From assembly GCA_016124905.1 (NCBI GenBank), contig WGMV01000011.1:82673-146672 (forward strand): DNA of 64,000 nucleotides, in the 5' to 3' direction. Positions 2,621 to 55,822 of the stretch are shown piece after piece (within the stretch, counting starts at the first letter, position 1; every line of letters begins with the position of its first letter). The notes under the pieces were generated by a model, which was given only the letters and a program-made list of their open reading frames with translations, was not told the origin of the DNA and searched no databases. The translations under genes were made by a program, and so were the position numbers. Source of the DNA: a bacterium (GTDB lineage: Bacteria; Pseudomonadota; Alphaproteobacteria; Rickettsiales; RI-342).

Positions 2621-2656
2621 GCATTAACAGCGAAACTAAAGTTTCGCTGTTAATGC
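2621..2656 (-). terminator. perfect 17-bp inverted repeat (2-nt centre) overlapping the pelG stop codon; possible end-of-operon hairpin
   Basis: The sequence is gcattaacagcgaaact-aa-agtttcgctgttaatgc. The right arm encodes the last PelG residues (LTAKL) and the TAG stop sits in the loop. There is no clear U-run afterwards, so terminator function is uncertain. Confidence 0.35.
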
Positions 2657-4024: not shown

Positions 4025-4025
4025 G

Positions 4026-6637: not shown

Positions 6638-6658
6638 GGGGATATTCTCTTTTATGCG

Positions 6659-8128: not shown

Positions 8129-8163
8129 GATCGTCTTCCTTAGGTTTTCGTCTGAAATAAGGG

Positions 8164-12540: not shown

Positions 12541-12546
12541 AAGGCC

Positions 12547-14955
12547 TTAGTAAGTTATGGTAACTTTTACAGCTTGGTTCGTTGGAGCTTGCAGTGAGAA
12601 AGTAAAAAATCCGTTGTCCATTAAAGGATTAAGGACCTTTCCTCCCTCGCTACTTACGGTAGCTTTGCCATTTTTTGGCAGTCGCCAGCGCATTGTTCCG
12701 AGTCCGAATCCTTGGGCATAAAACACTAGCTCTGTTTCAGAATTATGAATTCCCCACACTTTCCAACGAGAGTTAATTAAATAAGGTAAATGTGCATACG
12801 CATATTCACCATATAAATCAAGCTTTGTTAACTTTATGACCGGTTCTTCCACCGCCGCATCCAGATAAATATAGAGCGAACCTTGCAGATAACTGTGCCC
12901 CACCACACCTCGGGAATGCTGATAATCTACAGTTTTACCACCTGCCCTGTCGAACCGGATAGTTTGGAGGTCACCGCGCTCTTTTATCAACCATTGGTCT
13001 AGACCGTCGGGAATAATCTGGGTGGTATAAAACCCGTTGGCGATTCTGGAATAATTGGTGGCCGTCACGGGATGGATAAGACTGCGGCGTGCAAAATTAA
13101 GGTTTTCCTTTACCGCGTTCAGGCTGGCCAGCTTCTGGCCGGAGAACATATGGTAATAGATATTGAACGGCTTCACCCGCACCGGCATCTCGGTATTCAT
13201 CACCGTGCGGTACAGGTATTTATAGCCGTAATAGCGCCCCGACCAGTCCCCCGTATAGGTGATCTCGTTACTGCTGGATGAGTAGATCTGTCGCTCCCCT
13301 CCCACCAAACGGCCGATCGGCGCAACCCATACGTAGGAAGGAAATTCCGGGTCAAACCGTGTATCCCCGCCATTCAGGTTCAAAAGTCCCTGGTTGCGCG
13401 CCTTGCGAATGGCGGCCTCAAACGGGCGCGTGTTACCGCTCCACTGCACCAGGCCGATTTGCTTGCCCTTGGGCACGAACTGCTGAATGTAAAAGGCTGC
13501 GCCGCACATTTCCTGGTCGAGGTTAAAGGGCATATTGGCATAAGCGCGCGGAATGTAATAACGCCCGGGAATGGACTTGGCCCCCGGCACGTCGGTCAGC
13601 TCGCTCTGCGCCTTGTTATCGATCTCGCATTGCATGTTCACATTGTGGTCGTCATGGTCATTGCCGATGGAGGTCACCTGCTTGAACAGCTTGCTGGCAA
13701 AATTATCCGCCCAGTGGCCGGAGCTGTAATTCTTGAAATACTGCCGCTCGATATTGGGGTCGTATTTGGCGAAGAAGTCCCAATAGAACGGGTGGCTGTA
13801 GGTATGCGAGGCAGGCTCCACGTTAGGCTGGGCATAGATCTCCCGCGCTACTTCCTGGCTTTCCCGTTTTCCCACCCATGCCGGGTCCAGGTCGGCCGCG
13901 ATGGCCGCCACCGTCACCGGCAGGTCATTGTATTTTTTGATAATTTCCTCAAGCACCACCCGCGCGGCATACGCATGCCTGTCCTTGTAGGCGGGCACGT
14001 CGCTCAGGTTATTCCAGCCGTCGCCGTCAATATGGTGGTAGAAAATCCGCCGCCCTGCCTGGGTGGTAGTATCGGGCTTGGGCAATTCATCCGTGTGGTA
14101 GGCGCGGCGGAAAAACTCAAACGGGTTCACATACCACTGGCGGAATGCCTTCACCTCGTCCTCGTCCTTGGTCTGCTCCAGTTCTGAGAATACTTCATAC
14201 CCTTCCGCCACATAGCTGAAGCGGTCATTCTGCATCACCAGCGTGCTTCGCTTGTCGGTGGCTTCTTTGCTGTCCACGGCCAGGTAGACCTGGCTATCGG
14301 CCTCGGTCACATCCACCCCCTGATAGGATTTGATGACTGGCGGCAATTGACGCTCAAAGCCGAATACCCGCCGGTCCTCATGCACCACTTTCACGTCGTA
14401 GGTCACGGTCACCCAGCGGTCGCGCACATTGATACCGAGCTTGTTAAGCAGCGCATTGATACGCGGAAGCGTCGGCTTATTGCCCTTCCTGTCTTCGAAC
14501 AGAAAGGAATGGCCAAAACTGACGATGGGAATCCCCTTATCCGCCGCCGCCTCGATCCATTTCAGATAGGCCTCGGCATCCGGCACGCGGGAGGCCGGGT
14601 CGAACCATAAAAACACCCCCCTCACCCCGTCGATCGTGTTTAAATCCGGCAGCCCATGCTCAATATCGAAATATTTGACGATCAGGCCGAGGTGGTTCAT
14701 CGGCATTTCCGCCATGCGGTGGGTATAGGTCTCCGCCAGGTCGGGGTTGGCGGTACTCGTGTAAAGCGTCACAATCGTGCGTGGCAGCGGCTTGCCGGGC
14801 GGCAGCTCCATGGCCTTGGCATGCACCGGCGTTACCGGAGCCGCCGTTTTCACCACGGCTTTCTGTTTGGCATGCTTGGCTGCTTCCGCCACGGGCGAAA
14901 GCGCGGCATTCAACATGATAAACGCGCAGAAAATGATCAGCAGCCGCTTTATCAT
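12547..14955 (-). CDS. pelA: PelA-like polysaccharide deacetylase (reductase-like + CE4 deacetylase + C-terminal beta-sandwich), lacking the hydrolase domain
   Basis: 802 aa with its own signal peptide (MIKRLLIIFCAFIMLNAALSPVAEA). It carries the CE4-type metal/catalytic motifs YHHIDGDGW and SHTYSHP. It lies directly upstream of pelB, and its start overlaps the preceding ORF's stop (ATGA at 14952-14955). Confidence 0.75.
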   Translation of the reverse strand: MIKRLLIIFCAFIMLNAALSPVAEAAKHAKQKAVVKTAAPVTPVHAKAMELPPGKPLPRTIVTLYTSTANPDLAETYTHRMAEMPMNHLGLIVKYFDIEHGLPDLNTIDGVRGVFLWFDPASRVPDAEAYLKWIEAAADKGIPIVSFGHSFLFEDRKGNKPTLPRINALLNKLGINVRDRWVTVTYDVKVVHEDRRVFGFERQLPPVIKSYQGVDVTEADSQVYLAVDSKEATDKRSTLVMQNDRFSYVAEGYEVFSELEQTKDEDEVKAFRQWYVNPFEFFRRAYHTDELPKPDTTTQAGRRIFYHHIDGDGWNNLSDVPAYKDRHAYAARVVLEEIIKKYNDLPVTVAAIAADLDPAWVGKRESQEVAREIYAQPNVEPASHTYSHPFYWDFFAKYDPNIERQYFKNYSSGHWADNFASKLFKQVTSIGNDHDDHNVNMQCEIDNKAQSELTDVPGAKSIPGRYYIPRAYANMPFNLDQEMCGAAFYIQQFVPKGKQIGLVQWSGNTRPFEAAIRKARNQGLLNLNGGDTRFDPEFPSYVWVAPIGRLVGGERQIYSSSSNEITYTGDWSGRYYGYKYLYRTVMNTEMPVRVKPFNIYYHMFSGQKLASLNAVKENLNFARRSLIHPVTATNYSRIANGFYTTQIIPDGLDQWLIKERGDLQTIRFDRAGGKTVDYQHSRGVVGHSYLQGSLYIYLDAAVEEPVIKLTKLDLYGEYAYAHLPYLINSRWKVWGIHNSETELVFYAQGFGLGTMRWRLPKNGKATVSSEGGKVLNPLMDNGFFTFSLQAPTNQAVKVTITY

Positions 14956-15881
14956 GGCTTACCCTCCGCTTTCACGGGCACGGCCTGCTGCGCCACGGGG
15001 GTTTCCGGTGGTTCCGGTATAATGCGGTTAAGCTCAACCGTGGCGACATACGGATGGAACCCCTGTGCCCGGTGCGCCGCATAAATTTCGCGGATACCCG
15101 CCGGTTGAGCGGGGTCCCAGTAATCCAGCGTGAATATCTTCAGGTGTGGATAACGCGCCTGCACGGCCTTCAAGTAACTCACCCGCTGTTGATATTCCGC
15201 CGCGGGCACCTTGCTGTAGGTCTTGGTCTTGAAATCATAGGTCGTGTAGAGGCTCTCACCCAGCACGCCGTTAATATCGCCCGCCACTTCAGGCAACACA
15301 TCAAAACCCCGGTTCATCAAAATGAATATCTGCGGATAATGCAGCCTGATCGTGTGGATCAGCCGCACGGCCGCTTCTTTCATGCCCTTGTATTTCGCAG
15401 GCTCCCTCTGTTCCAGGTAGCTGGCATTATCCATCGTATCGATGAAAATGCCGTTCACACCGCGAAACAGCACCTCGGGAATAATCTCCTCCACCACCAG
15501 ACGCGGCCAGTCGGCATTACGCATATCCACCAGGCGGCTTTCGGGCCAGTTGGCGTTCGGCGCAAGCAGCATGCCTGCCTTTTCAGCATCGGCAAAATAC
15601 CAGCGGGTTTCATGCACCTCGCCCAGGCTTACATAACCAAGCACGGTCTTGTTATTATTCACGTAATCGCGCACCGGCAGGTTGCGCACCGTTTCCAGCA
15701 CAATCATCTGATAGGGATTGAACGCGGTGGAAAGCGCCTTCTGTCCGTAATACACCACCCATTTCACCGGTTTGGGCGGTGCGGGCGCATTGGCCGTGCT
15801 GCCGCCTATCGCCCCAAGCAGCAAAAGGGCGGCCAGCACGCCCGAAACGCCTTTTAACAATTTTCCTGCCCGATAAGGCAT
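14952..15881 (-). CDS. pelA: stand-alone PelA-hydrolase-like glycoside hydrolase (GH114/GH166-type TIM barrel, endo-alpha-1,4-polygalactosaminidase-like)
   Basis: 309 aa with a signal peptide (GVLAALLLLGAIGG). The pattern VVYYGQ..., VLGYVSLGEV, GIFIDTMDN resembles the N-terminal hydrolase domain of PelA. A GGAGAG RBS precedes the ATG. It is the first gene of the pel cluster. Confidence 0.7.
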   Translation of the reverse strand: MPYRAGKLLKGVSGVLAALLLLGAIGGSTANAPAPPKPVKWVVYYGQKALSTAFNPYQMIVLETVRNLPVRDYVNNNKTVLGYVSLGEVHETRWYFADAEKAGMLLAPNANWPESRLVDMRNADWPRLVVEEIIPEVLFRGVNGIFIDTMDNASYLEQREPAKYKGMKEAAVRLIHTIRLHYPQIFILMNRGFDVLPEVAGDINGVLGESLYTTYDFKTKTYSKVPAAEYQQRVSYLKAVQARYPHLKIFTLDYWDPAQPAGIREIYAAHRAQGFHPYVATVELNRIIPEPPETPVAQQAVPVKAEGKP

Positions 15882-16032: not shown

Positions 16033-17802
16033 TTAGACGAACACGAAGTCGTTGAGCGTCCAGACATGGTCGTTGCCGGTAACGGTATGAGCGCCGTCGG
16101 CATCCGTGTAGGAAACGGAACCATGCGAGGTGATGGCTTCGTATTTGCCGGCATGGTCGTTCCAGAAGTAAACCGTGGAAGTGCCCAGGCCTTTGATATC
16201 GGCGGCTGCATAGCCATCCAGGTAGATTTTTTCGTGGTTCGTGGTGAAATCGCTGATGAGATCCACACCATCGCCTTTGGCGAAGTTGAAGATATCGTCG
16301 CCAGCGCCGCCGGAGACCACATCGCCGATGACGATGGTGTTTTTGCTGGCGCAACCGCAGGAAGCAACCGTGAAGCTGCCGTCGTCGGTACCGCCGACCA
16401 GCGTGTCGCAGTCGGAACCGCCATTGAGCGTGTCGTTGTTTTCGTTACCTTCGATCCAGTCGTTGCCGGTATCACCATAAATGATGTCCTTGCCGGTACC
16501 GCCGAAGAGATTGTCATTATCCTCGTTGCCGTGGATAAAGTCATTGCCTTCGTCACCCGTGATGAGGTCGGTGCCGCAATTACCATACAGGCGGTCGTTT
16601 TCCGTGCCGCCGTAAATGGTATCGTCGCCGTTGCCGCCATAAATGGTGTCGTCGCCGGCGCAGCCGTTCAGCAGGTCGTTGCCGTCTTCACCAAGGATAT
16701 AGTCATTGCCTTGGTTGCCATGGGCTTCGTCATTGCCGATGCCGCCATAGATCTTGTCGTCACCGTCGCCGCCCTGCATGAAGTCATTGCCATCCTGGCC
16801 ATACAGCGTGTCGTTGCCGGCTTCACCGGAGAGGGAGTCATTATCGGCGCCGCCTTCCACCCAGTCATTATCAGCACCGGCCCATACGGTATCGTTACCG
16901 GCATTGCCGAAAATCGTATCGTTGCCAGCGCCGCCTTCAACATAATCATGGCCAGCATCAGCGGAGATCTTATCCGCGCCATCGCCACCATAGATATTAT
17001 CGTTGCCGTTACCGCCCCAGATGGTGTCGTTGCCACTGAAGCCATCGATCGTGTCGTTGCCGTCACCGCCGACGAGGGCATCGTTGCCATTGCCACCGTT
17101 CAGGTAATCATGGCCCGCGTCACCGAAAATGGTGTCGTTTTCGGAACCGCCATAAATGGTGTCATCGCCATTGCCGCCATACAATGTATCGCTGCCGCTT
17201 TCACCTTCAATATAATCGTTACCGTCTTCACCCCAGACCTTGTCATTGTCTTTACCGGCGAACACCCAGTCATTGTCGGCGCCAGCCATGATGGTGTCGT
17301 TGCCGTCATCACCGGTGATAAGGTCGGAACCAGAGCCGCCGCTGACGGAGTCACCGTCGCCACCGGCATAAATCGTGTCATTGCCGCAACCGCCGATCAG
17401 CGTGTCGCAACCGAAGAAGCTGCCGTTGATATAGTCATTGCCATTGCCGGCATCGATGTAGTCATCGCCTTCGTTGCCATCCAGCCAGTCGTTGCCGTCG
17501 CCGCCATAGATGGTGTCGCGGCCGTCGCCACCGTGGATGGTGTCGTTACCGATGTCACCGGCGAAGTAATCATTGCCGGCATTGCCCCACATCAGGTCGT
17601 TGCCTGCGCCGCCCAGCACGATGGCTGCTTTGGCGGAGTTGACGTAGAACACGTCATTGCCCGCGCCGCCGTCCATGTAGTTGTTCTTGCCGTTCATCAA
17701 GCCGGACAGGGAATCGTTACCGGCGGTCCCGCCAATAAGATTATAGGGTGCGCCTGCGCCGAATACGGCGTTGATCAGGGCTTGGTTAACGGTAACAGGC
17801 AT
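16033..17802 (-). CDS. RTX (hemolysin-type calcium-binding repeat) secreted protein
   Basis: 589 aa made almost entirely of tandem GGxGxDxUx nonapeptides (GGAGNDLMWG, GGDGRDTIYGGDGNDWLDG...). There is no N-terminal signal peptide. The C-terminus ...VWTLNDFVFV resembles a T1SS C-terminal signal. Confidence 0.9.
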   Translation of the reverse strand: MPVTVNQALINAVFGAGAPYNLIGGTAGNDSLSGLMNGKNNYMDGGAGNDVFYVNSAKAAIVLGGAGNDLMWGNAGNDYFAGDIGNDTIHGGDGRDTIYGGDGNDWLDGNEGDDYIDAGNGNDYINGSFFGCDTLIGGCGNDTIYAGGDGDSVSGGSGSDLITGDDGNDTIMAGADNDWVFAGKDNDKVWGEDGNDYIEGESGSDTLYGGNGDDTIYGGSENDTIFGDAGHDYLNGGNGNDALVGGDGNDTIDGFSGNDTIWGGNGNDNIYGGDGADKISADAGHDYVEGGAGNDTIFGNAGNDTVWAGADNDWVEGGADNDSLSGEAGNDTLYGQDGNDFMQGGDGDDKIYGGIGNDEAHGNQGNDYILGEDGNDLLNGCAGDDTIYGGNGDDTIYGGTENDRLYGNCGTDLITGDEGNDFIHGNEDNDNLFGGTGKDIIYGDTGNDWIEGNENNDTLNGGSDCDTLVGGTDDGSFTVASCGCASKNTIVIGDVVSGGAGDDIFNFAKGDGVDLISDFTTNHEKIYLDGYAAADIKGLGTSTVYFWNDHAGKYEAITSHGSVSYTDADGAHTVTGNDHVWTLNDFVFV

Positions 17803-22149: not shown

Positions 22150-22599
22150 ATGACAAGCTGCATCATCCCCTGCCTGCGTTACAAGGACGCACCCGCCGCG
22201 ATCGACTGGCTTGAGGCCGCCTTCGGCTTTCAGCGCCATGCCGTGTATGAAGGCGAGGATGGCATGATACTGCATGCCGAGCTTAGCTACAAAAGCGCCG
22301 ACCACGGACGCGGCATGATCATGCTCGGCTCGGACATGAAACAGGGCGACTACGCCAAATTCACCGCCACGCCTTCACAGGCGGGAGCTAAAAATACCCA
22401 GACGGCCTATATCATCGTGCCGGAAGTGGACGCGCATTACGCCCGCGCCAAGGAAGCCGGGGCGGAAATCATCATCGACATCAAGGATGAAAGCTACGGC
22501 GGCCGCGGCTATACCTGCCGCGATCCGGAAGGCTATGTCTGGAGCTTCGGCAGCTACGACCCGTGGCGCAATGCCGACACCCAAAGCTCCATCCTCTGA
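22150..22599 (+). CDS. VOC (glyoxalase/bleomycin-resistance/PhnB-like) family protein
   Basis: 149 aa. Shows IIPCLRYKDAPAAIDWLEAAFGF...HAEL and YGGRGYTCRDPEGYVWSFGSYDPW. AGGAGG RBS. Confidence 0.8.
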   Translation: MTSCIIPCLRYKDAPAAIDWLEAAFGFQRHAVYEGEDGMILHAELSYKSADHGRGMIMLGSDMKQGDYAKFTATPSQAGAKNTQTAYIIVPEVDAHYARAKEAGAEIIIDIKDESYGGRGYTCRDPEGYVWSFGSYDPWRNADTQSSIL

Positions 22600-24056: not shown

Positions 24057-24185
24057 CTTTCATCATGAATGCGATGCCGCAATCTACACCCATTCCAAAC
24101 CCAAAAGCGAGCGGATTATAAGGCCTGCAAACCCGTCCATTTCCATCAATTTTCTTGTCATTTCCTTACCTTTGCCCTAATCGGG

Positions 24186-25151
24186 ATGCTTCACAAAAGG
24201 ATATGTCTCTTGCCTCAGCCCGCCACCGCCTCGTTGCCCGTAACCGGCAGCCCGTTTGAACAGATTTCCAAAACGCTGCTGGAAATATTCCCCGCCCATG
24301 CCCCCCAGGTGGAAAAGCGCATGCAGGCCCCCGCCGCCGAACGCGCGGTGATCGAGGAACTCTCCGCCAATATCCTCGCCATTGCAGGCAATGACGCCAC
24401 GCTCCGCACCTATTGCGAAGATTATAAATGGCTGACCGACCGCATGCTGGAAGAAGAACTCTATTTCCGCCGCCACGGCCGCTACCGCATCGCCACCTTC
24501 GAGCAGGCCGAGAAAGAGGTCTACGCGAACAAGGACTTCATGACCAGATACATGCATGGCGTGCTGTTGAGCCATCTCTTCTGGTCCAACCACACCCAGG
24601 TCATTCAGTATTTGATCGAGACCTTCCTGCCCGGCAACAAGCAGGGCTACCGCCATCTGGAAGTCGGCCCCGGCCACGGGCTGCTGCTGTACCGCGCCGC
24701 CAAAGATCCACGCGCCGCCAGCATCGCCGGCTGGGACGTGAGCGAAACCAGCATGAAAATGACCGAAGCCACGCTGAAGGCCATGGGCGTGCAACGTCCC
24801 ATCACTCTGGAACTGAAAAACCTTTTTGCAAATCCTGTGGGCGAGTTCGATTCCATCGTCTTCTCCGAAGTGCTGGAGCACCTGGAACAACCGGTCGAAG
24901 CGCTGAAGATCCTCGCCAACCTCACCGCACCCGGCGGAAGGCTCTTCATCAACGCCCCTATCAACTCCCCCGCGCCGGACCATATCTACCTCTTCAACAC
25001 GCCGGAGGAATTCATCGACATGGTGAAATCCGTCGGGCTGGAAGTGGAAGACGTCCTCATGGCCCCCGTCATCGGTTCCACGCTGGAGCGTGCCCGCGCC
25101 CTCAAATTCACCATCTCAACCGTCGTCATCGCCAGAAAGCCACAAGCATGA
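24186..25151 (+). CDS. class I SAM-dependent methyltransferase (start uncertain; alternatives 24069 or 24321)
   Basis: Motif I HLEVGPGHGLLL and post-motif FDSIVFSEVLEHLEQP, APGGRLFI. The stop overlaps the ACP start (ATGA at 25148-25151). Confidence 0.8.
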   Translation: MLHKRICLLPQPATASLPVTGSPFEQISKTLLEIFPAHAPQVEKRMQAPAAERAVIEELSANILAIAGNDATLRTYCEDYKWLTDRMLEEELYFRRHGRYRIATFEQAEKEVYANKDFMTRYMHGVLLSHLFWSNHTQVIQYLIETFLPGNKQGYRHLEVGPGHGLLLYRAAKDPRAASIAGWDVSETSMKMTEATLKAMGVQRPITLELKNLFANPVGEFDSIVFSEVLEHLEQPVEALKILANLTAPGGRLFINAPINSPAPDHIYLFNTPEEFIDMVKSVGLEVEDVLMAPVIGSTLERARALKFTISTVVIARKPQA

Positions 25152-25399
25152 GCCAGCAACAGATTTTTGATAAACTGACCGAAATCTTCCGCGTCATGTT
25201 CGACGAATATACCGGCCCGGTGAACGAGCAGCTCACCGCCGAATCCGTCGGCCAGTGGGACAGCCTCTCCCACGTGCAGCTGATTGTGATGATTGAGCAA
25301 AGCTTCGGCATCAGCTTCACCGCCGCCGAACTCAGCGATCTCAAAAATGTCGGCGCGCTGGTTAAGCTGATTGAAAGCAAAACCCGCAAGGCGGCTTAA
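25148..25399 (+). CDS. acyl carrier protein (stand-alone, polysaccharide/lipid-modification type)
   Basis: 83 aa: MSQQQIFDKLTEIFRVMFDE...VGQWDSLSHVQLIVMIEQSFG. The DSLS motif is the phosphopantetheine attachment site. Found in the frame of track ORF 24428..25399. Confidence 0.85.
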   Translation: MSQQQIFDKLTEIFRVMFDEYTGPVNEQLTAESVGQWDSLSHVQLIVMIEQSFGISFTAAELSDLKNVGALVKLIESKTRKAA

Positions 25400-25417
25400 C
25401 TTCAGGTCAAGGTAAGC

Positions 25418-27352
25418 ATGACGTATTTCCCATGGCGTCCCCTGCCTTCCGAAGACTGGCAAACCCGCCTGAACAACGTGGCGGATGCCGCCAAATCCGA
25501 CATCACGCCTGAGCAGGGCAAGCTGCTGGCGCTGGACCTTCGCCGCTTGGCCAACGCACGGCTGGACATGTTCCAGCAGATCAAGCTGGAACAGCTCATG
25601 GCCAGGCTCTGGCCCCAGCGCAAAAACTTCGGCTCGCTACGCCCCGTCAAGCTCGGCATGGCGGGCAACCGTACCCTTAGCTATCTTGCCAATGCACTCC
25701 GCGCCGCCGCCCCAGCCCGCGGCCTGATGGTGGATTGCATTGAAGCCCCCTACGATTCCGCAGCCGCGCTCGCTATGGGCCGTGGCAACGCCTTCGATGG
25801 CGAAGCGGTGGATGCCACCCTGCTGATGCTCGACATCGCCGCCTTTCTTTCTCCCGCTGCATTGCTGGATATTGAGGCAGCCGAGGCCGCCACCGCCCGT
25901 GCGGAGGAATTCCTCCTGCGCCTGGCCGAGGGCATAAAAGCCCAGACCAAGGCGCCCGTCATCATGGCCACCCTGCCGGTGCCGCCCATTCATTCCGTCA
26001 CATCCGTGGATGGCGGCATGGCGGGCAGCACATTGCATTTCATCCACGCCGTCAACCGTCTGATCCATCAGGCGGGCGCGAAAGGAGAATGGATCGTCTG
26101 GGACGTCGCCACCCTCGCCAGCGAAATTGGCACGCGCAACTGGTTCGACATGACGCGCTTCTACCAGGCCAAAACCCCCTTCGCGCTGGAACTCTCCCCC
26201 GTGGTGGCCGACCATCTCTGCCGCCTGCTCGCCGCCATGTTCGGCAAGGCCTCGCGTGCGCTGGTGCTGGATCTCGACAACACCCTATGGGGCGGCGTCA
26301 TCGGTGACGACGGTGTGGAAGGCATCGCCATCGGCAGCGGCTCCGCCACCGGGGAGGCCCATGCCGCGCTCCACCAGCTGGCGCTGGAATACCGCCGCCG
26401 TGGTGTGGTGCTGGCCGTCTGCTCCAAAAATACCGACCACATTGCCCGCGAACCGTTCGAAAAACACCCCGACATGCTCCTGAAGCTGGATCATATCGCC
26501 GTCTTCCAAGCGAATTGGCAGGACAAGGCCACCAACATCCAGGCCATAGCCGAGCAGCTCAGCCTCGGCCTCGAATCCCTCGTCTTCGTCGACGACAACC
26601 CGGCCGAACGCGCCCGCGTGCGGCAGGAATTCCCGCAGGTGCAGGTGCCGGAAGTCGGCGAGAATGCCGCCAACTTCGCCAGCATCCTCGCCATGGCCGG
26701 TTATTTCGAGCATCTGCCGCTGAATAACGACGACCTCAAACGCGCCGAAGCCTATCAGGCCGAAGCCAAACGCGCCGAGATCAAATCCAGGGTCGAGAAT
26801 TACGACGACTACCTCGCCTCCCTGCAGATGAAAATGACCATCCGCCCCTTTGACGAGATCGGCCGCCCGCGCATCGCGCAGCTCATCAACAAATCCAACC
26901 AGTTCAACCTCACCACCCGCCGTTACAACGAAGACCAGATCACCGCCTTCATGCAGGACAAAAACATCCTCGGCTGGCAGGTGCGCCTGAGCGACGCCTT
27001 CGGCGACCACGGCATGATCGGCGTCGTCATCGCCCGCAAGGATAAAAAACACTGGGAGATCGACAGCTGGGTCATGTCCTGCCGGGTGCTGGAACGCGGC
27101 GTGGAACACACCATCATGAACGAGCTCATCGCCGCCGCCCGTGCGGAAGGCGCCGAGAGCATCGACGGCATATACCTTCCCACCGAGCGTAACGGCCTGG
27201 TGAAGGATTTCTACCCCAAACTCTGGGCCGATGCCCCCACCGAAAAACCCGCCGGGCATTACCACCTGCAAACCGATGCCTATACGCCACACAAGACCTT
27301 TATCGATGTCGATAACGGCGCCGCAACGCCTGCATTGAAACATGCTGTTTAG
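25418..27352 (+). CDS. FkbH-like HAD-IIIC family protein (carrier-protein loading enzyme) with C-terminal GNAT-like domain
   Basis: 644 aa. HAD motif I is LVLDLDNTLWGGVIGDDGVEGI, followed by VLAVCSKN and VFVDDNPAER. The C-terminal region WEIDSWVMSCRVLERGVEH is typical of FkbH-like proteins. Confidence 0.85.
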   Translation: MTYFPWRPLPSEDWQTRLNNVADAAKSDITPEQGKLLALDLRRLANARLDMFQQIKLEQLMARLWPQRKNFGSLRPVKLGMAGNRTLSYLANALRAAAPARGLMVDCIEAPYDSAAALAMGRGNAFDGEAVDATLLMLDIAAFLSPAALLDIEAAEAATARAEEFLLRLAEGIKAQTKAPVIMATLPVPPIHSVTSVDGGMAGSTLHFIHAVNRLIHQAGAKGEWIVWDVATLASEIGTRNWFDMTRFYQAKTPFALELSPVVADHLCRLLAAMFGKASRALVLDLDNTLWGGVIGDDGVEGIAIGSGSATGEAHAALHQLALEYRRRGVVLAVCSKNTDHIAREPFEKHPDMLLKLDHIAVFQANWQDKATNIQAIAEQLSLGLESLVFVDDNPAERARVRQEFPQVQVPEVGENAANFASILAMAGYFEHLPLNNDDLKRAEAYQAEAKRAEIKSRVENYDDYLASLQMKMTIRPFDEIGRPRIAQLINKSNQFNLTTRRYNEDQITAFMQDKNILGWQVRLSDAFGDHGMIGVVIARKDKKHWEIDSWVMSCRVLERGVEHTIMNELIAAARAEGAESIDGIYLPTERNGLVKDFYPKLWADAPTEKPAGHYHLQTDAYTPHKTFIDVDNGAATPALKHAV

Positions 27353-28919
27353 TTCTGCTTCCTATATCTTCCTGTTCGTTCCCATTGCGGTGGCGGGCTA
27401 TTTTCTGTTCTACAAGCTCCGCCTCAGTCAAGCAGCACGCCTTTGGCTCTGCCTGGCCAACATCACCTTCTATGCCATTTCCGATCTCACCTTTCTGCCC
27501 TTGATGCTCGGCTCCATCCTGTTCAACTTCACTGCCGTGCATGGCATGAAAAAAACGGAAGGGCGCATCCGCAAAACCCTCTTCATCGGCGCCATCCTGG
27601 TTAATCTGGGCCTGCTGTCACTTTACAAATACACCGATCCCTTTCTGGATTTCCTCAATCACAGCATCAGCACCAATTTCACCCTGCTGAAGCTGGCTTT
27701 CCCGCTCGGCATCTCCTTCTTCACCTTCCAGCAGCTGGCCTACCTGATCGACAGCTTTCAGAACAAGGCGCATGAATATAAATTCATCAATTACGTCATT
27801 TTCGTCACCTTCTTCCCTCACCTGCTTGCCGGGCCGCTGGTCAACCATAAGCAGATCATTCCGCAATTCGCCAGCCCGCGTAACCATTTCATCAAATGGA
27901 ACCACGTCCATCAGGGTTTGATCATTTTCGCCATCGGCCTGTTTAAAAAATCCATCATCGCCGACAGCCTCGCCACCTATGCGGATTTCTTTTTCGACTA
28001 CGGCCCCGATGCAAGCATGCTGGAGGCCTGGGTCGGCTCTCTCTGCTACACGTTTCAGCTTTATTTCGATTTTGCCGGTTATTCCGAAATGGCCGTCGGC
28101 GTGGGGCTGATGTTCAACATCCACCTGCCCATCAACTTCAATTCCCCGATGATTGCGCGCGATATGGTCGGCTTCTGGAGCCGATGGCACATGACCATGA
28201 CCGGCTGGTTCCGCGATTATCTCTTCACACCGCTTTCTTTCTGGATTTTCCGCCGCTGGTTCGCCCCGCTTTCCAAACGCGGCATGAAACCGGCGGATAT
28301 TCATTTCCTGCTTTCCATCCCCATCACCGCCGTCATGTTCACCACCATCGGGCTCTGGCACGAGGGCAGCCTGAAAGCCATTATCTTCGGCCTGTTCAAC
28401 GGCGGCGGTGTGCTGTGGGTGATGCTCTGGAAGCGCATCGGCTTTCGCCTGCCCTACCTGCTGGCCCATGCGCTGACGCTCTTGAGCTTCAACATCGCCT
28501 GCGTCTTTTTCCGCGCCCATAGCCTTGGCCGTGCGGGCAACATCCTGCAATCCATGATGGGCAAATACGCCATCCTGCCCAGCCGCGACGGTTATTTTTT
28601 CGAACGCGTGCCCTATGACACCTGGCTTGATCCGGTGGCGCTCGGCACCTCCACCCACTTCCTTGCCATGCTGGAAAACGGTGCGCTCATCGCCGCCCTG
28701 CTGCTGTGCCTGCACATGCTGCCCCATGCGCTGCAGCTGACGGCCTACATGCCGCTGGAGGCCCACAACCGCGTGCAGCAATGGCTGTATCCGCGCCTTC
28801 GCCCATTCTTCGCCGTCGGCTCATTGCGCGCGGCCATCCTGGCGGGTCTGTTGATTTTCCTCGGCATGGCGGGCGTCTTCATGCACGAAACCTCACCCTT
28901 CATCTATTTCGCCTTCTGA
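27342..28919 (+). CDS. MBOAT family O-acyltransferase (AlgI/DltB-like)
   Basis: 525-aa polytopic protein. N-terminus MLFSSASYIFLFVPIAVAGYF. The invariant-His block is FWSRWHMTMTGWFRDYLFTPL. 11-nt overlap with the preceding gene. Confidence 0.9.
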   Translation: MLFSSASYIFLFVPIAVAGYFLFYKLRLSQAARLWLCLANITFYAISDLTFLPLMLGSILFNFTAVHGMKKTEGRIRKTLFIGAILVNLGLLSLYKYTDPFLDFLNHSISTNFTLLKLAFPLGISFFTFQQLAYLIDSFQNKAHEYKFINYVIFVTFFPHLLAGPLVNHKQIIPQFASPRNHFIKWNHVHQGLIIFAIGLFKKSIIADSLATYADFFFDYGPDASMLEAWVGSLCYTFQLYFDFAGYSEMAVGVGLMFNIHLPINFNSPMIARDMVGFWSRWHMTMTGWFRDYLFTPLSFWIFRRWFAPLSKRGMKPADIHFLLSIPITAVMFTTIGLWHEGSLKAIIFGLFNGGGVLWVMLWKRIGFRLPYLLAHALTLLSFNIACVFFRAHSLGRAGNILQSMMGKYAILPSRDGYFFERVPYDTWLDPVALGTSTHFLAMLENGALIAALLLCLHMLPHALQLTAYMPLEAHNRVQQWLYPRLRPFFAVGSLRAAILAGLLIFLGMAGVFMHETSPFIYFAF

Positions 28920-30088
28920 TGACCAAACCGGCAAAACCAACCGCCAGCAAGCTTCGCCTCTGCATCGCGTTATGCTATGCCATTCCGCTACTGCTGCTCG
29001 GTGTCTGGGGTGCGGGCACCATCTGGCTGGATCCCTTTAACCTCTACCATTGGCGCGCGTCCTACCAATGGCTGAAGCCCGGACTCATCCACAATGTCTC
29101 CTACCTTTTCTGGAACGCCGCTTACGATAAACCCGGCGCCGTATGGGCGCTCGGCGCCAGCAATAACATCATCTTCCGGCCGGAACATTTTCAACGGGCC
29201 TATGGTGATGTGCCCGTGCGCAATTTCTCCATGAACGGCATTACTTTCGGCGAGCTTTCCAAACTCATGGATGCCATGGAAAACGCCGGGCAGCCAAGCT
29301 ATGTCTACCTCTCGCTCGATCTCACCTTTCCCAGCCGTGAAACCACGCTCCGCAAACGCTTTACGGATTTTCTCTACAACCATTCCCTGTGGGATGATTA
29401 CCGTTACTGGTATTCCACCGAGGCACTCACCGGCAGCTATTACCTCCTCACCAGCGGCAAATTATGGGTGCGCAGCAGCGCCTACCCGGAAAAACAATAC
29501 CGCTATCGCGAATCCGGCTACCGCCGCTTCAATTCGCCGGAAAACATCGCCGGCATCGCCGCCTTCATCCAACAACACCCACACCTCACCTTCACCCCGC
29601 CCAAGGTGGATTGCACGGATTATAAAACCGAGCTCGACCGCGTAGAACAATTCGTCAGAACCATGCAGGCACGTGGCACAAAAGTGGACATGCTCTTTCC
29701 GCCCTACGCCTATGCCGTTCAGTCCCTCCGGCGCGACAAGGCACAGGCAAAGTTCAAGAAGGATTTCTATGAAATCCAGATCGGCTATGAACGCTGCTTC
29801 GTCGAGCGCCTGTCGCATTACGAAAACGCCCGCCTGTTCGGCTTTGACGATGTGCAATGGATCACCACCGACCTCGCCAATTACTACGACCCCGTTCACT
29901 ATCACCCTGACAAGGTGGTGAATTACCTGTTCGATGCCATTCACGACAACACCCATCGCCTGACGCCCGGCATGATGCCCGCTTACGAGCAGCGCTTCCT
30001 CAAAGGCTTGAATGCCTATTATGATGGCATCTACAAAGCTCCGCCGGTCAAAGGCCCCAAAGCCGTGGGCTGGGATCTTGTCTATTAA
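28919..30088 (+). CDS. membrane-anchored extracytoplasmic protein, candidate DltD/AlgX/SGNH-like acyl-transfer partner of the MBOAT
   Basis: 389 aa from the ATG overlapping the MBOAT stop (TGATG, 28917-28921). Has an N-terminal TM helix (LCIALCYAIPLLLLGVWGAG). Contains GASNN and C-terminal DPVHYH motifs reminiscent of SGNH Ser and Asp-x-x-His catalytic blocks. The call rests largely on position and topology. Confidence 0.5.
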   Translation: MTKPAKPTASKLRLCIALCYAIPLLLLGVWGAGTIWLDPFNLYHWRASYQWLKPGLIHNVSYLFWNAAYDKPGAVWALGASNNIIFRPEHFQRAYGDVPVRNFSMNGITFGELSKLMDAMENAGQPSYVYLSLDLTFPSRETTLRKRFTDFLYNHSLWDDYRYWYSTEALTGSYYLLTSGKLWVRSSAYPEKQYRYRESGYRRFNSPENIAGIAAFIQQHPHLTFTPPKVDCTDYKTELDRVEQFVRTMQARGTKVDMLFPPYAYAVQSLRRDKAQAKFKKDFYEIQIGYERCFVERLSHYENARLFGFDDVQWITTDLANYYDPVHYHPDKVVNYLFDAIHDNTHRLTPGMMPAYEQRFLKGLNAYYDGIYKAPPVKGPKAVGWDLVY

Positions 30089-32307: not shown

Positions 32308-32375
32308 GCCCCGTGGGTAGCAGAGCTCTTGCGCCGCCGCCATCGCTATCTTCCGCTTGCCGGTGGCATTTATTA

Positions 32376-34127
32376 ATGCTTTTCTGGCAGGCTGAGACAT
32401 TCACCTGCTGCCGGATTTGCCCCATGTTAAGCAACGACATCGCCGCCCTTCGCGTCGGTAATAGCCAATGGCTGGTCGGCATGCCCGGTGTGACGACGTC
32501 CGGCGGTCAGCTGAACATCACCTACAGCTTTGACGCCACCACCCCCAACAACGCCAATTATGCCACCGCCATCGCCGCGCAGGGCCGCACCGTGATGACG
32601 GTTCAGCAGGAAGCTGCCGCCCGCGCCATCCTGGTTGAGCTGGAATCCATCATCAACGTTCATTTTGTGGAAACCGGCACCAACAGCGCCGCCATCAAAT
32701 TCTGGACGGGCGATCTTCCCACCTATGGCTCTCAATGGGGCACCATCGGCATTGCTTACTTCCCAAGCAACAGCGGGTCGGATGTCACGCTGGATAATGT
32801 GGCCGAACGCGCCACAGCCTATGCCGCGGGCAGCTTCAACTATGCCGCCCTCATTCATGAAATGGGGCATGCCATGGGGCTGAGCCATCCCGGCGGTTAC
32901 GGGCCGAATGCCGCCTATAACAGCGATGGCACGGTCATGTCCTACAATGACGGCCATTATTCCACCGATGGCTATGTCAGCGGTTCCTACATCAACAGCG
33001 CTCCCCAGGGATATCAGATATTCGATATCGCCGCTCTTCAGTCCGTTTACGGAGCCAACCGTGCTTACAACGCAACCGATACCACCTACGAGTTCGACGG
33101 CTCGATGTACAAAAAAACCGTCTGGGATGGCGGCGGCATCGACACCTATTCCGTAGCCCCCGCCTTTGCCGGGGCCGTAACGATCGACCTTCGCGCAGGA
33201 CTTGAGAACCGCACTCATCTGGGGCAGACGGATGTCTGGACCGCCTTCAACGCCAACATTGAAAATGCCATCACCCGTGGCGGGGCGGATTCGGTTTTCG
33301 GCAACGACCTTCACAACACCATCAACACCAATGCGGGCAACGATACGGTCTATGCCTATAACGGTAACGATTCCATCTATGCCGGGCTGGGCGACGACTG
33401 GGTGGACGGCGGCAATAACAACGATTTTATCTTTGGCGATGACAATAGCGGCCTTAATGGCGACGACCGGCTGATCGGCAATGCCGGCAACGACACGATC
33501 TACGCCTATGGCGGTAACGACACCGTGAGTGGCAACAACGATAACGACCGCCTCTATGGCATGAATGGCAACGACACCCTCAGCGGCGACGACGGCAATG
33601 ACTGGTTGGAAGGCAATGCCGATAACGACTCCATCAGCGGTGGCTCAGGCGCCGATTCGCTGGTGGGCGGCACAGGCGACGACACCATCAAAGGCGACGA
33701 CGGCAACGATTTTCTCTATGGTGAAGCCGCAACCGACCTGACCGGCGGTAACGACATCATGGTAGGCGGCACCGGTAACGACCGCATGTGGGGCTATGCC
33801 GGAAATGACAGCCTCAACGGCGCGCTGGGCAGCGACGTGCTCTATGGCGGCGCCGACAACGATATGTTTGTGTATAACAGCAAGGCCTTCTCAAATCCGG
33901 TCAATGGCATCGACTGGCTGATGGATTTCAACCCCGCCGATGACCGCATCAACACGGTCGGCCTCGGCTATACGGGCATCGGCACGGCGGCGGCTTTCGG
34001 CACCATGCTGAACTACACCTACCTCGCCGCATCCGGCGTGACGCAGGTAAGCGACTATGGCAGGCATTTCGTGCTCTACCTTGCAGGGCATCTCACGCTG
34101 GATAATACCGATTTCATTTTTTCCTGA
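32376..34127 (+). CDS. serralysin-family (M10B) zinc metalloprotease with C-terminal RTX repeats (alternative start 32424)
   Basis: HEMGHAMGLSH zinc motif, Met-turn GTVMSYN, then GGxGxD nonapeptides. The C-terminus is ...LDNTDFIFS. It is a paralog of 42703..45264. Confidence 0.85.
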   Translation: MLFWQAETFTCCRICPMLSNDIAALRVGNSQWLVGMPGVTTSGGQLNITYSFDATTPNNANYATAIAAQGRTVMTVQQEAAARAILVELESIINVHFVETGTNSAAIKFWTGDLPTYGSQWGTIGIAYFPSNSGSDVTLDNVAERATAYAAGSFNYAALIHEMGHAMGLSHPGGYGPNAAYNSDGTVMSYNDGHYSTDGYVSGSYINSAPQGYQIFDIAALQSVYGANRAYNATDTTYEFDGSMYKKTVWDGGGIDTYSVAPAFAGAVTIDLRAGLENRTHLGQTDVWTAFNANIENAITRGGADSVFGNDLHNTINTNAGNDTVYAYNGNDSIYAGLGDDWVDGGNNNDFIFGDDNSGLNGDDRLIGNAGNDTIYAYGGNDTVSGNNDNDRLYGMNGNDTLSGDDGNDWLEGNADNDSISGGSGADSLVGGTGDDTIKGDDGNDFLYGEAATDLTGGNDIMVGGTGNDRMWGYAGNDSLNGALGSDVLYGGADNDMFVYNSKAFSNPVNGIDWLMDFNPADDRINTVGLGYTGIGTAAAFGTMLNYTYLAASGVTQVSDYGRHFVLYLAGHLTLDNTDFIFS

Positions 34128-35996: not shown

Positions 35997-36181
35997 GGCG
36001 ATTCCTGCAAGCAAAAGGGCAAGCCTTATAGCGCAACACGCCCCGCCAGCATAGCCCCTTATTTGCCAAGCGCGTTGCGTTTCTAATCCTTGCAAGCCTT
36101 TGCGCTTCATGCCAGATTGCCATGGCAGGGTCAGGTGACCGCACTCCCCCGGCATATGTTTTCCATAAAACACGAGCCACC

Positions 36182-37582
36182 ATGCCCAAACGCCTGCTGC
36201 CCGCCACCCTGATCTTCCTGTTGCAGCCCATGCCCCTGTGGGCGGAGGAAACCGCCGCCACCGGCGACGATAAAAAAAATTACTATGTCGAAAGCCCAAG
36301 CTACAGCACGCAACGGGAAAGCGACCCGCCGCGCTATGTCCGCACCCTGAGCGACACCGGCATGGATGCTTTCAAGAATCTTGACTGGCTGGATGCCGGA
36401 CTGGTGCACCGCATGCGCTACGAACACCGCGACAATGACTACCGCCGCCCCGCGGAAAGCGTCGACGATCCCTTCCTGTTCCGTACACGCGCCTATCTGG
36501 GCGTCAAAAACATCGCCGATCCGCTTCGCCTCACCGTGGAATTCACCGATTCCGAACGCACGCATAGCCAATTTGCCCGCGACGACCGCGACGTGAACCA
36601 GGCGGAATTCATCCAGGCCTATGGTGAACTCTATTTCAAGGACGCCCTCGGCGATGACCGCCCGCTCAGCATCCGCGCCGGTCGCATGGCATTTGAGACG
36701 CTGGACCGCCGCCTCATCGCCCGCAACGAATGGCGCAACACCACCAACAGCTTTCAGGGCGTGCGCGCCCTACTCGGGCAGGACAGCAACGACTGGGAGC
36801 TTGAGCTCTTCGCCCTGCAACCCATGCGCCGCCTGCTTTACTCCGTCGACCGTCGCAACGAGGATGTCTGGTTCACCGGCGCCATCGGCCATTGGCGGCA
36901 ATATTCCGATACCATCACCCTGGAGCCTTTCTATTTTCGTCTGGACCAGGGCGATGACAACGGGCTGCCAGAACGCACCATCCATTCACCGGGCCTGCGC
37001 GCTTACGGCTATTTCGGCAAAAGCGGCTTTGATTACGATGCAAGCCTGATCTATCAGTTCGGCGAGAGCGACGGCGATGACGTTGAGGCACTGGGCGCCG
37101 TTGCGGAAATCGGATACCGGTTCGACATGCCGTGGAAGCCTCGCCTCAGCATGAAATACGGCTACGGCAGCGGCGATGAAGACCCCACCGACGATGAGAG
37201 CAACCGCTTTGAGCGCTTCTACGGCTTTGGCCGCCCCTGGTCGGCCAACGATTATTTCCAGTGGGAAAATATCAGCACCCCAAAAGCACGCCTGGAACTG
37301 CAACCCGCCAGGGACACGAAATTCGATGCCGGTTACAGCCTCTACTGGCTGGCCAGCGATACCGACCGCTGGAACAATGCCAACCTGCGTGATTCCAGCG
37401 GTCAAAGCGGCGATTTCATCGGCCAGGAATTCGACATGCGCCTGCGGCAGAAGCTGATGCCCCATGTCGAGGCCACCACCGGCTATGCCTATTTCGAGCC
37501 CGGTGAATTTACCGAAAACACCAGCCGCAACGAGCCGTCGCACTTCTTCTATCTGGAGCTCACCTTCAGTTTGTTTGACTAG
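36182..37582 (+). CDS. alginate-export (AlgE-like) family outer-membrane beta-barrel protein
   Basis: 466 aa from MPKRLLPATLIFLLQPMPLWAEE (signal peptide). Shows alternating beta-strand patterns, RMRYEHRDNDYRR, and many Y/W/D/G-rich strands. Confidence 0.7.
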   Translation: MPKRLLPATLIFLLQPMPLWAEETAATGDDKKNYYVESPSYSTQRESDPPRYVRTLSDTGMDAFKNLDWLDAGLVHRMRYEHRDNDYRRPAESVDDPFLFRTRAYLGVKNIADPLRLTVEFTDSERTHSQFARDDRDVNQAEFIQAYGELYFKDALGDDRPLSIRAGRMAFETLDRRLIARNEWRNTTNSFQGVRALLGQDSNDWELELFALQPMRRLLYSVDRRNEDVWFTGAIGHWRQYSDTITLEPFYFRLDQGDDNGLPERTIHSPGLRAYGYFGKSGFDYDASLIYQFGESDGDDVEALGAVAEIGYRFDMPWKPRLSMKYGYGSGDEDPTDDESNRFERFYGFGRPWSANDYFQWENISTPKARLELQPARDTKFDAGYSLYWLASDTDRWNNANLRDSSGQSGDFIGQEFDMRLRQKLMPHVEATTGYAYFEPGEFTENTSRNEPSHFFYLELTFSLFD

Positions 37583-54228: not shown

Positions 54229-54488
54229 CACTCCCCCACCCACGCGCACCCATCCTGCCCGATTGCAAAAGCCCCGCATTCTGCTACCCTGCCCCTGCGT
54301 CTAGAAAACGCAAGTATAACCGTCCACCGCTCACGACAGGGCGGGTTTTTTGTGCCCGCAGCTTAGGCTGCGCCCGGCGCAAAATCTCCTATGTCGGGAG
54401 TGTGGTGCGATACAATACCCGCAAGGGGAAACCATCACACACGCGTTATACCGTGTTTTCTAGACTCCCGACACTTGAGGAGGAAAAC

Positions 54489-55732: not shown

Positions 55733-55822
55733 GGATGGGTGGCCGAGTGGTTTAAGGCACCGGTCTTGAAAACCGGCGTGGGTGCAAGCTCACCGTGGGT
55801 TCGAATCCCACCCCATCCGCCA
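55733..55822 (+). tRNA. tRNA-Ser (anticodon UGA)
   Basis: Cloverleaf read by hand. Acceptor stem GGATGGG/CCCATCC, anticodon stem CCGGT/ACCGG with loop CT-TGA-AA, long variable arm, T-arm GTGGG-TTCGAAT-CCCAC, discriminator G and encoded CCA. Confidence 0.93.

Follow-up and report, generated by a model that had tools for sequence, protein, structure and literature searches.

A putative envelope-acylation operon on the + strand (positions 24186-30088) was analyzed in a 64,000-nucleotide stretch of contig WGMV01000011.1 (GenBank assembly GCA_016124905.1; Alphaproteobacteria, Rickettsiales), hereafter called the window. An earlier note, based on the letters of this stretch, had proposed a pathway with the logic of the Dlt system, in which an FkbH-type enzyme replaces the adenylating ligase. 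The window sequence and a check of its open reading frames (ORFs) showed five same-strand genes that overlap or nearly abut. They encode a methyltransferase (MT, 321 aa; 24186-25151), an acyl carrier protein (ACP, 83 aa; 25148-25399), an FkbH-like loader (644 aa; 25418-27352), a membrane-bound O-acyltransferase (MBOAT, 525 aa; 27342-28919), and a fifth protein with a predicted SGNH fold, here called the partner (389 aa; 28919-30088). The MT and ACP genes share an ATGA overlap (25148-25151), an 18-nt gap precedes the FkbH-like gene (25400-25417), the FkbH-like and MBOAT genes overlap by 11 nt (27342-27352), and the MBOAT and partner genes meet in TGATG (28917-28921). An alternative, longer MT reading frame starting at 24069 is possible. 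These junctions agreed with the coupled five-gene unit described in the earlier note, as did the motifs HLEVGPGHG and SEVLEHLEQP in the MT, WDSLS in the ACP, DLDNTLWGG in the FkbH-like protein, FWSRWHMTMTGWFRDYLF in the histidine block of the MBOAT, and LGASNN and DPVHYH in the partner.

Profile searches confirmed the proposed identities of the first four proteins and gave no match for the fifth. The FkbH-like protein matched TIGR01686 over its full length at 306.6 bits, twice the cutoff of 146.65, and the HAD-IIIC model TIGR01681 at approximately 61 bits (cutoff 35.75), which upheld its assignment as an FkbH-like HAD-IIIC protein. Its architecture comprises an N-terminal FkbH_N-like domain, a HAD-IIIC phosphatase domain with the DLDNTLWGG motif (D285 and D287), and a C-terminal domain with Cys555 in an SCRV motif. 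The first two of these domains matched 3slr (E = 1.6e-53), an uncharacterized structural-genomics entry for B. fragilis BF1531. Apart from one hydrophobic core stretch, no transmembrane (TM) segment was found in the protein. It was aligned with five other sequences: two homologues from related cassettes, a homologue from a C. perfringens plasmid, a Streptomyces protein of 642 aa whose gene lies between those of a FabH-like ketosynthase and an ACP (the tetronate 'glycerate-utilisation' arrangement), and a short B. cereus FkbH from a zwittermicin-like gene cluster for nonribosomal peptide synthetase (NRPS) and polyketide synthase (PKS) enzymes. Residues D285, D287, S336, K337, N338, K370, D392, D393, S554, C555, R556, R560, G561, and N592 were invariant in this six-sequence alignment. 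This set includes the SCR cysteine block and the catalytic motifs of the HAD domain, and D285, D287, S336, K337, K370, D392, D393, and S554-C555-R556 were also kept across all cassette homologues; the catalytic Asp and Cys residues on which the earlier interpretation depended were thus retained. The long-form architecture is shared with the protein of the Streptomyces FabH-FkbH-ACP operon.

The C-terminal Cys of FkbH-like proteins is, from the OzmB literature, what we take to be the carrier of the glyceryl intermediate, and, to our knowledge, 1,3-bisphosphoglycerate (1,3-BPG) is the substrate of every characterized member of the family. In PKS pathways, conversion of 1,3-BPG into glyceryl-ACP has been assigned to an FkbH-like enzyme acting with a stand-alone ACP (PMC7489565). 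Thousands of homologues of the window protein were found, of which those with approximately 50% identity were mainly alphaproteobacterial and included proteins of S. meliloti (a 473-member cluster), Qipengyuania, Citromicrobium, Labrys, and Rhizomicrobium. FkbH-like proteins with 35-43% identity to that of the window were also seen, unannotated, in two human-fecal 'Bacteriophage sp.' records (MT835480.1, 71764-73146; MT839313.1, 3-872).

The ACP matched the PP-binding model at 27.8 bits (cutoff 20.8; E = 3e-6) and did not reach the cutoff of any AcpP or DltC equivalog in NCBIfam (19.8 versus 68 bits for DltC, NF003464), which indicated a specialized ACP. Its predicted phosphopantetheine site is Ser39 in WDSLS (25262-25264), and its best match in the PDB was 2lml, a 'putative ACP' (E = 6e-14). 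An ACP with a conserved DSL was encoded in every related cassette, at 40-55% identity. The MT, of the class I S-adenosylmethionine (SAM) type, consists of an N-terminal extension of approximately 130 aa and a catalytic domain (residues ~135-260) that matched Methyltransf_23, Methyltransf_12, and Methyltransf_11 in Pfam with E-values between 3e-13 (Methyltransf_23) and 8e-10. No TM segment was found in it. An orthologue with 92% identity was present in the related locus L002, and orthologues with 47-54% identity over approximately 300 residues, including the extension, were present in loci L017, L019, L020, L021, L024, and L025. Their genes always lay directly upstream of that of the ACP and, in L025, were retained with ACP and FkbH even without an MBOAT. 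We propose that the MT is a tailoring enzyme for an ACP-bound C3 unit.

The MBOAT matched PF03062 (55.8 bits, E = 6e-15). Its best NCBIfam model was TIGR04091 (DltB), at 146.6 bits and under the cutoff of 375, and its closest solved relative was DltB (6bug, E = 6.5e-22), which aligned with residues 9-365 including both conserved histidine blocks. In a set of ten related MBOATs, H340, F520, Y522, and F525 were invariant and H283 was at least 90% conserved. Approximately 160 residues, with hydrophobic segments at 370-391, 439-468, and 488-517, extend beyond the DltB-like core and end in FIYFAF (residues 520-525; 28899-28916, + strand), a match to the FXYXXF motif found at the C-terminus of all MBOATs collected (21/21). 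FXYXXF is an 'acyl shuttle' motif, borne in Dlt by the microprotein DltX; every other bacterial MBOAT pathway has it joined to the C-terminal end of the MBOAT, on two additional TM helices, and a covalent acyl intermediate on its Tyr is then used by the SGNH partner (PMC12148441, a 2025 JBC paper on PatA/PatB). Because it ends in FIYFAF on extra C-terminal helices, the window MBOAT is of the PatA/AlgI type and not of the DltB type. With the shuttle motif fused to the MBOAT, no DltX is needed; no separate DltX microprotein with FXYXXF was found among the ORFs at 23.9-30.4 kb, of which the MBOAT is the sole one with this ending. Tyr522 is the predicted site of an acyl-Tyr intermediate. The MBOAT and its histidine block had been correctly recognized in the earlier note, and its architecture refines the Dlt comparison made there. 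Together with a dedicated ACP, these features combine a PatA/AlgI-type architecture with a Dlt-like dependence on a carrier protein.

The partner has a single N-terminal TM helix (residues 9-37) and is predicted to be extracytoplasmic. As a single sequence it gave no match in Pfam or NCBIfam, and neither a 12-sequence nor a 108-sequence profile gave a significant match in the PDB. A word-indexed search for homologues retrieved the protein itself and one relative with 57% identity, and then 15 proteins, and was replaced by an exhaustive HMMER search of 1.84 billion representatives, which placed 277 clusters in the family at E ≤ 1e-3. When family members were scanned singly against Pfam, none of 13 gave a significant match. 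DltD (PF04914) was detected in 0 of 108 members, ALGX weakly in 2 of 108 (best E = 0.008), and DUF1574 in 1 of 108 (E = 0.08). No significant sequence-level link to the DltD and AlgX/AlgJ families (PF04914, PF16822) or to PatB was found in these searches, and a likeness emerged only at the level of the fold. Among 108 diverse full-length members, the only invariant columns were G79, S81, and H327, with D38, P39, and D324 at least 90% conserved. The conserved blocks, a G-x-S shortly after the membrane anchor and a D-x-x-H near the C-terminus, form an SGNH/DltD signature, and conservation predicts a triad of Ser81 (LGASNN), Asp324, and His327 (DPVH).

Structure prediction agreed with this signature. 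An initial AlphaFold model from 12 sequences had a mean predicted local distance difference test (pLDDT) score of 60 and was replaced by an AlphaFold2 model based on the 108-sequence alignment, with a pLDDT of 91.1 and a predicted template modeling (pTM) score of 0.89. The top 23 matches of this model in a Foldseek search of the PDB were all SGNH folds. They included platelet-activating factor (PAF) acetylhydrolases (target-normalized TM-score 0.60-0.64), the D-alanyl transferase DltD (6pfx, 390 aligned columns, probability 0.99), and the peptidoglycan O-acetyltransferase PatB of C. jejuni and N. gonorrhoeae (8tlb, 7tjb; probability 1.00). Since no sequence profile matched significantly across 108 members and yet the fold is that of SGNH proteins, the partner represents a predicted SGNH family for which no model exists. 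The DltD-like character proposed for the last gene therefore stood for fold, topology, and catalytic residues, and did not stand for sequence. The partner is proposed to be the terminal transferase to the acceptor. In RefSeq and UniRef, members of this family are labeled 'TonB-dependent receptor', as in the 315-member cluster P0123 and in S. meliloti (pSymB CP140948, locus L004, 5423-6652). This label looks like a propagated mis-annotation, given that these proteins have an SGNH fold, a single TM helix, and a length of approximately 400 aa.

Conservation of the neighborhood, a check suggested in the earlier note, was evident for the core of four genes. Approximately 20 of 20 independent loci with a close partner homologue kept MBOAT, ACP, and FkbH alongside it, in at least four gene orders, an arrangement far beyond chance. 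They belong to Rhizobiaceae, Erythrobacteraceae, Rhizomicrobium, and one gammaproteobacterial genome, and thus to two proteobacterial classes. A partner-seeded scan of a genome collection returned ten loci (from Rhizobiales, Ensifer, two Sinorhizobium species, Rhizobium, Erythrobacter, Aurantiacibacter, Qipengyuania, and a Sphingomonadales genome), all with MBOAT, partner, ACP, and FkbH (10/10). Further loci came from S. meliloti pSymB, Qipengyuania, L002, four metagenomic or metagenome-assembled genome (MAG) contigs, and one gammaproteobacterial MAG. On S. meliloti pSymB and in Qipengyuania, genes for an MBOAT, an 81-83 aa ACP, and an FkbH stand with that of an unannotated 363-409 aa protein, which proved to be a partner homologue (E = 1e-29 and 1e-22, respectively). 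The cassette was present on pSymB of approximately 40 Sinorhizobium meliloti isolates. One distant partner, P0257, lies on a 1.6-kb contig without gene context.

Around this core, the MT was a recurrent addition beside the ACP and a MaoC dehydratase an occasional one, giving three grades of system: the core, the core with MT as in the window, and the core with MT and dehydratase. L002, an 87%-identical relative, shows the five-gene order of the window and the same left-hand synteny. In L017 and L020 the order is MBOAT-partner-MT-ACP-FkbH, and in L021 an MT-ACP-MaoC-FkbH set is divergent from MBOAT-partner. The gammaproteobacterial L024 has the full set and a MaoC homologue. L019, on a Rhizomicrobium MAG contig (4103-14571), carries the tandem sets MBOAT-partner-MT-ACP-MaoC and MBOAT-partner-ACP-FkbH, with partners that are 61% identical and, in the ACP-FkbH set, an additional unannotated protein of 397 aa; here, two ACPs, and two decorations that differ in their tailoring, may depend on a single FkbH. 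Identity among the MaoC proteins is 50-60%, and they occur only together with an MT. No adenylation enzyme, ketosynthase, or condensation enzyme was found in any cassette locus examined. In L025 (Labrys neptuniae CDRMMP010000001, 6649-10929), MT-ACP-MaoC-FkbH occurs without MBOAT or partner beside a hexapeptide-repeat acyltransferase, with phage portal, terminase, and Mu-F genes to one side of it and DnaB and helix-turn-helix genes to the other. This set may be a prophage-borne surface-glycan (seroconversion) module that uses the same C3 cargo.

Genes of the VOC/glyoxalase family were seen close to the cassette both in the window (22150-22599) and in S. meliloti, as well as beside an ACP-FkbH pair on a C. 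perfringens plasmid. A link with the cassette was rejected, as these VOC proteins were mutually unrelated by BLAST and the gene was absent from other cassette loci, including the close relative L002. The plasmid in question (pZ1322WCP0016-2; L015, 5835-8116) carries genes for a radical-SAM protein, two ABC transporters, and a nucleotidyltransferase upstream of those for the VOC protein, the ACP, and the HAD-IIIC/FkbH-like protein, and provides a further, Gram-positive, non-PKS setting for the FkbH-ACP pair. In the metagenomic cassette L017, a 48-aa ORF without FXYXXF lies between ACP and FkbH (9352-9498); it has no counterpart in the window.

Taken together, these data support the interpretation given in the earlier note and, at a probability that we put at roughly two in three, the operon encodes a carrier-protein-dependent MBOAT-SGNH acylation pathway whose donor is a glycolysis-derived C3 acyl group, instead of D-alanine or acetyl-CoA, and whose acceptor is extracytoplasmic and most likely a glycan. 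This reading builds on points that the comparisons above support directly: which genes are present, which domains they encode, the conservation of catalytic residues, the partner's SGNH fold, and the tight co-inheritance of MBOAT, partner, ACP, and FkbH across distant lineages. As cargo, we infer a glyceryl or O-methylglyceryl group. In a first step, the FkbH-like enzyme would take 1,3-BPG, its HAD domain would strip the 3-phosphate, and the glyceryl group would be held on Cys555 before its transfer to the phosphopantetheine of the ACP; this step is suggested by family membership and conserved residues. The cytoplasmic MT would then O-methylate the ACP-bound glycerate, as suggested by its fixed position beside the ACP in many loci. 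FkbG-type enzymes provide a precedent for O-methylation of a C3 unit, with a debated timing relative to oxidation (PMC7489565). By analogy with DltB/DltC for the donor and with PatA for the fused motif, the MBOAT would subsequently receive the acyl group from acyl-ACP on the cytoplasmic side and pass it to its own Tyr522 in FIYFAF at the outer face. Finally, the membrane-anchored partner would accept the group on Ser81 and esterify a hydroxyl of the acceptor, most likely that of a glycan. In loci with MaoC, dehydration would, speculatively, give a pyruvoyl or 2-methoxyacryloyl unit.

Several observations weigh against this pathway. Identity between the alphaproteobacterial FkbH clade of the window and the PKS-cluster homologues in the alignment is only 24-30%, and no structure or specificity code lets the substrate of the FkbH-like enzyme be deduced from its sequence. 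MBOAT/SGNH pathways other than Dlt have been stated to use acyl-CoA, without carrier proteins (PMC12148441), and, since the window MBOAT has a non-Dlt architecture, use of acyl-CoA is compatible with its sequence. In locus L027, a plain MBOAT of 476 aa that ends in FIYFQF is paired with a distant partner-family member, and ACP, FkbH, and MT are all absent nearby; with L025, this boundary case indicates that the parts of the cassette are separable. No acceptor pathway consistently adjoins the cassette, most loci lying among housekeeping genes. Promoter, terminator, and Rfam scans gave nothing informative near the operon, and the outcome for promoters and terminators likewise counts on this side.

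With the FkbH/FkbJ systems that supply glyceryl-ACP to PKSs (OzmB, ZmaN, and tetronate operons), the operon shares a TIGR01686 enzyme beside a stand-alone ACP, the long-form architecture, and the presence of an O-methyltransferase, as in the case of FkbG in the methoxymalonyl-ACP pathway. Unlike those systems, it has no ketosynthase, FabH-like enzyme, or NRPS/PKS consumer, its MT is of the Methyltransf_23 and not of the FkbG type, and its predicted consumer is a membrane acyltransferase. No FkbK or FkbI dehydrogenase was found in the operon or in any cassette locus. The 24-30% identity to PKS-cluster proteins leaves room for the same relay with another cargo, in which the FkbH-like enzyme would load a different acyl phosphate or phospho-hydroxy acid, or the cargo would be further transformed, so that the decoration would not be a glycerate-type ester. 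The MaoC dehydratase added in related cassettes, by which the ACP-bound unit would be chemically edited, also points in this direction. We nevertheless consider another cargo unlikely: TIGR01686 was matched at twice its cutoff, all residues that were invariant in comparison with PKS-cluster homologues are kept, the PKS literature assigns 1,3-BPG to FkbH-like enzymes (PMC7489565), and the window operon is without a dehydratase.

A glycan acceptor would be the most economical reading of the neighborhoods. Glycan-type neighbors comprise Wzx and AT3 in L017, GT2 and GDSL genes in L021, and GT4, two GT2s, an ABC exporter, and PIG-L in L024, and in S. meliloti a GT4 and methyltransferases lie within a few kb of the cassette. 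It is, by comparison, improbable that the acceptor is a membrane lipid, a glycolipid, or a small secreted metabolite, with the MBOAT-SGNH pair as a tailoring device for lipids or natural products. Most loci indeed have no adjoining polysaccharide genes, L024 contains radical-SAM and B12-dependent radical-SAM enzymes, an amidohydrolase, and an ABC exporter, as in clusters for specialized metabolites or glycolipids, and cyanobacterial MBOATs acylate sugars of natural products (PMC13122637). However, FXYXXF with a TM-anchored SGNH partner is a polymer-acylation device in all characterized bacterial cases (PMC12148441), and the Wzx, AT3, and glycosyltransferase neighbors in L017, L021, and L024 also speak for a polymer.

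The Pel polymer, which had been named in the earlier note as a nearby candidate acceptor, gained no support. A complete Pel-type locus does occupy 2636-15881 on the - strand of the window, from pelG to a GH114 pelA-like gene, and ends 8.3 kb upstream of the operon, close to the approximately 9 kb given before. It encodes PelG (396 bits), PelF (DUF3492 and GT4), PelE-like (TPR) and PelD-like (GAF) proteins, a PelB-like TPR protein of unusual length (1458 aa), a protein of 802 aa without Pfam match, and a separate 309-aa PelA-like protein with only GH114; the multidomain PelA thus seems to be split or replaced. Pel is unlikely as a specific acceptor because the cassette occurs without it in neighborhoods outside this clade, and because housekeeping genes separate the two. 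By sequence, these intervening genes encode a GalU-type NTP transferase and a TerC/CBS protein, in agreement with the annotation of the syntenic L002, in which a porphobilinogen-deaminase gene is also listed in the corresponding interval. Downstream of the operon, the genes are unrelated and encode a PNPOx-like protein, an iron permease, RTX metalloproteases, an orphan AlgE-type porin, and an efflux system.

Some further features of these surroundings were recorded. Three proteins with RTX calcium-binding repeats are encoded within a span of 30 kb in the window (16033-17802, - strand; 32313-34127 and 42703-45264, + strand), one with 19 repeat matches and no other domain and two with an M10 (serralysin/matrixin-like) protease domain. 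In S. meliloti, a 'calcium-binding protein' is encoded 1.2 kb downstream of the cassette (L004, 10041-11645). The orphan AlgE-type outer-membrane porin (36122-37582, + strand; Alginate_exp, 339.6 bits) has no other alginate genes nearby and is followed by an OEP/MFS/HlyD efflux operon on the opposite strand. A match to the Rfam family sRNA-Xcc1 (54393-54480, + strand; 53.4, with a gathering score of 53) lies 1.3 kb upstream of tRNA-Ser(TGA) (55733-55822, + strand), a pairing that can mark an integration hotspot or mobile element.

The O-acetylation systems PatA/PatB, AlgI/AlgJ/AlgX, and the WssH type resemble the window pair in their MBOATs of approximately 480-525 aa that end in FXYXXF and in their separate extracytoplasmic SGNH transferase, PatB being among the top fold matches of the partner. 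They have been reported to use acetyl-CoA without a carrier (PMC12148441), unlike the window pair, which is co-inherited with a dedicated ACP and loader. Two unrelated adjoining units, namely an acetyl-CoA-dependent PatAB/AlgIJ-like O-acetylation pair and a separate cytoplasmic MT-ACP-FkbH pathway, would fit the acyl-CoA-type architecture of the MBOAT, the plain MBOAT-partner pair in L027, and the MT-ACP-MaoC-FkbH set without MBOAT in L025. Against this, approximately 20 of 20 loci with a close partner kept the four genes contiguous despite reordering and across two proteobacterial classes, the genes of the window overlap, and no cassette locus contained a ketosynthase, condensation enzyme, or other consumer of glyceryl-ACP. 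Two independent units are therefore very improbable.

The Dlt system for D-alanylation of teichoic acids (DltA-DltC-DltB-DltX-DltD) likewise encodes a dedicated small carrier together with an MBOAT and a single-pass SGNH partner of approximately 390 aa; the MBOAT core of the window is nearest to DltB among solved structures, and the partner aligns with DltD over its full length at fold level. In contrast to Dlt, the operon has an FkbH/HAD loader in place of the adenylating ligase DltA, carries the shuttle motif as part of the MBOAT itself, on extra C-terminal helices, instead of on DltX, and is predicted to handle a C3 acyl group that is uncharged or hydroxylated and not a cationic amino acid. 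Its host is of the Gram-negative type, as indicated by genes for the Pel locus, the outer-membrane efflux protein (OEP), and the AlgE-type porin in the window. A divergent canonical Dlt system can practically be dismissed, despite DltB being the best solved relative of the MBOAT and a weak DltC match of the ACP, because no DltA or other AMP-binding gene was found in the operon or in related loci, the DltB, DltC, and DltD models scored below cutoff or not at all, and DltX is replaced by the fused motif.

A methylated glycerate acyl group is known from another bacterial surface glycan. The flagellin glycan of Campylobacter jejuni carries a di-O-methylglyceroyl modification, and genes for an additional ACP, a HAD hydrolase, and a SAM methyltransferase lie in the corresponding region. 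That modification differs from the pathway proposed here in being cytoplasmic, on a nucleotide sugar, and an amide, and no MBOAT/SGNH pair is known to take part in it. In open-access PMC and bioRxiv full text, no FkbH-to-MBOAT relay was found. Co-mentions of FkbH and MBOAT in that literature were confined to cyanobacterial aeruginosin/suomilide clusters, in which the enzymes act in unrelated steps; FkbH with exopolysaccharide returned only a bioinformatics method paper, and FkbH with AlgI, DltB, O-acyltransferase, or acyl carrier protein returned no FkbH paper among the matches listed. No glyceryl transferase was named there for the L-glycerate ester of gellan and other sphingans. In RefSeq, the S. 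meliloti cassette is labeled generically, as 'MBOAT family / TonB-dependent receptor / acyl carrier protein / HAD family hydrolase', so that homologous operons had not already been assigned to another route. Within the literature covered, the FkbH-ACP-MBOAT relay thus appears to be undescribed.

The present analysis refines the original interpretation in that the MBOAT is of the PatA/AlgI type, the partner belongs to a new SGNH family, the system is widespread and modular, and Pel is not specifically implicated. MBOAT-SGNH pairs are general bacterial machinery for acylation of peptidoglycan, teichoic acids, alginate, and cellulose, and the resulting modifications govern resistance to antimicrobial peptides and lysozyme, biofilm properties, and recognition by phages and the immune system. 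Current models recognize two types of donor, D-alanyl-DltC in Dlt and acyl-CoA elsewhere. If the proposed C3-acyl pathway is correct, the cassette adds a third. We regard the chances as evenly balanced that FkbH and ACP, with MT and MaoC as options, form a portable cargo module that makes glyceryl, O-methylglyceryl, or dehydrated C3 thioesters out of a glycolytic intermediate, plugs into PatA-type MBOAT/SGNH pairs or a prophage hexapeptide acyltransferase, and constitutes a widespread third donor mode for new ester decorations. Such a mode would contradict the statement that only Dlt uses a carrier protein, and could identify the long-missing kind of enzyme for glycerate esters on exopolysaccharides. 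The pathway would predict that surface polymers bear C3 esters of a hydroxylated or methoxylated kind, to which no transferase system was found to be assigned. It would also link an enzyme of natural-product extender-unit synthesis to envelope biogenesis. Because the cassette is located on pSymB of the genetically tractable S. meliloti, the prediction is directly testable, and it may be of relevance to symbiosis and to the engineering of polysaccharide properties.

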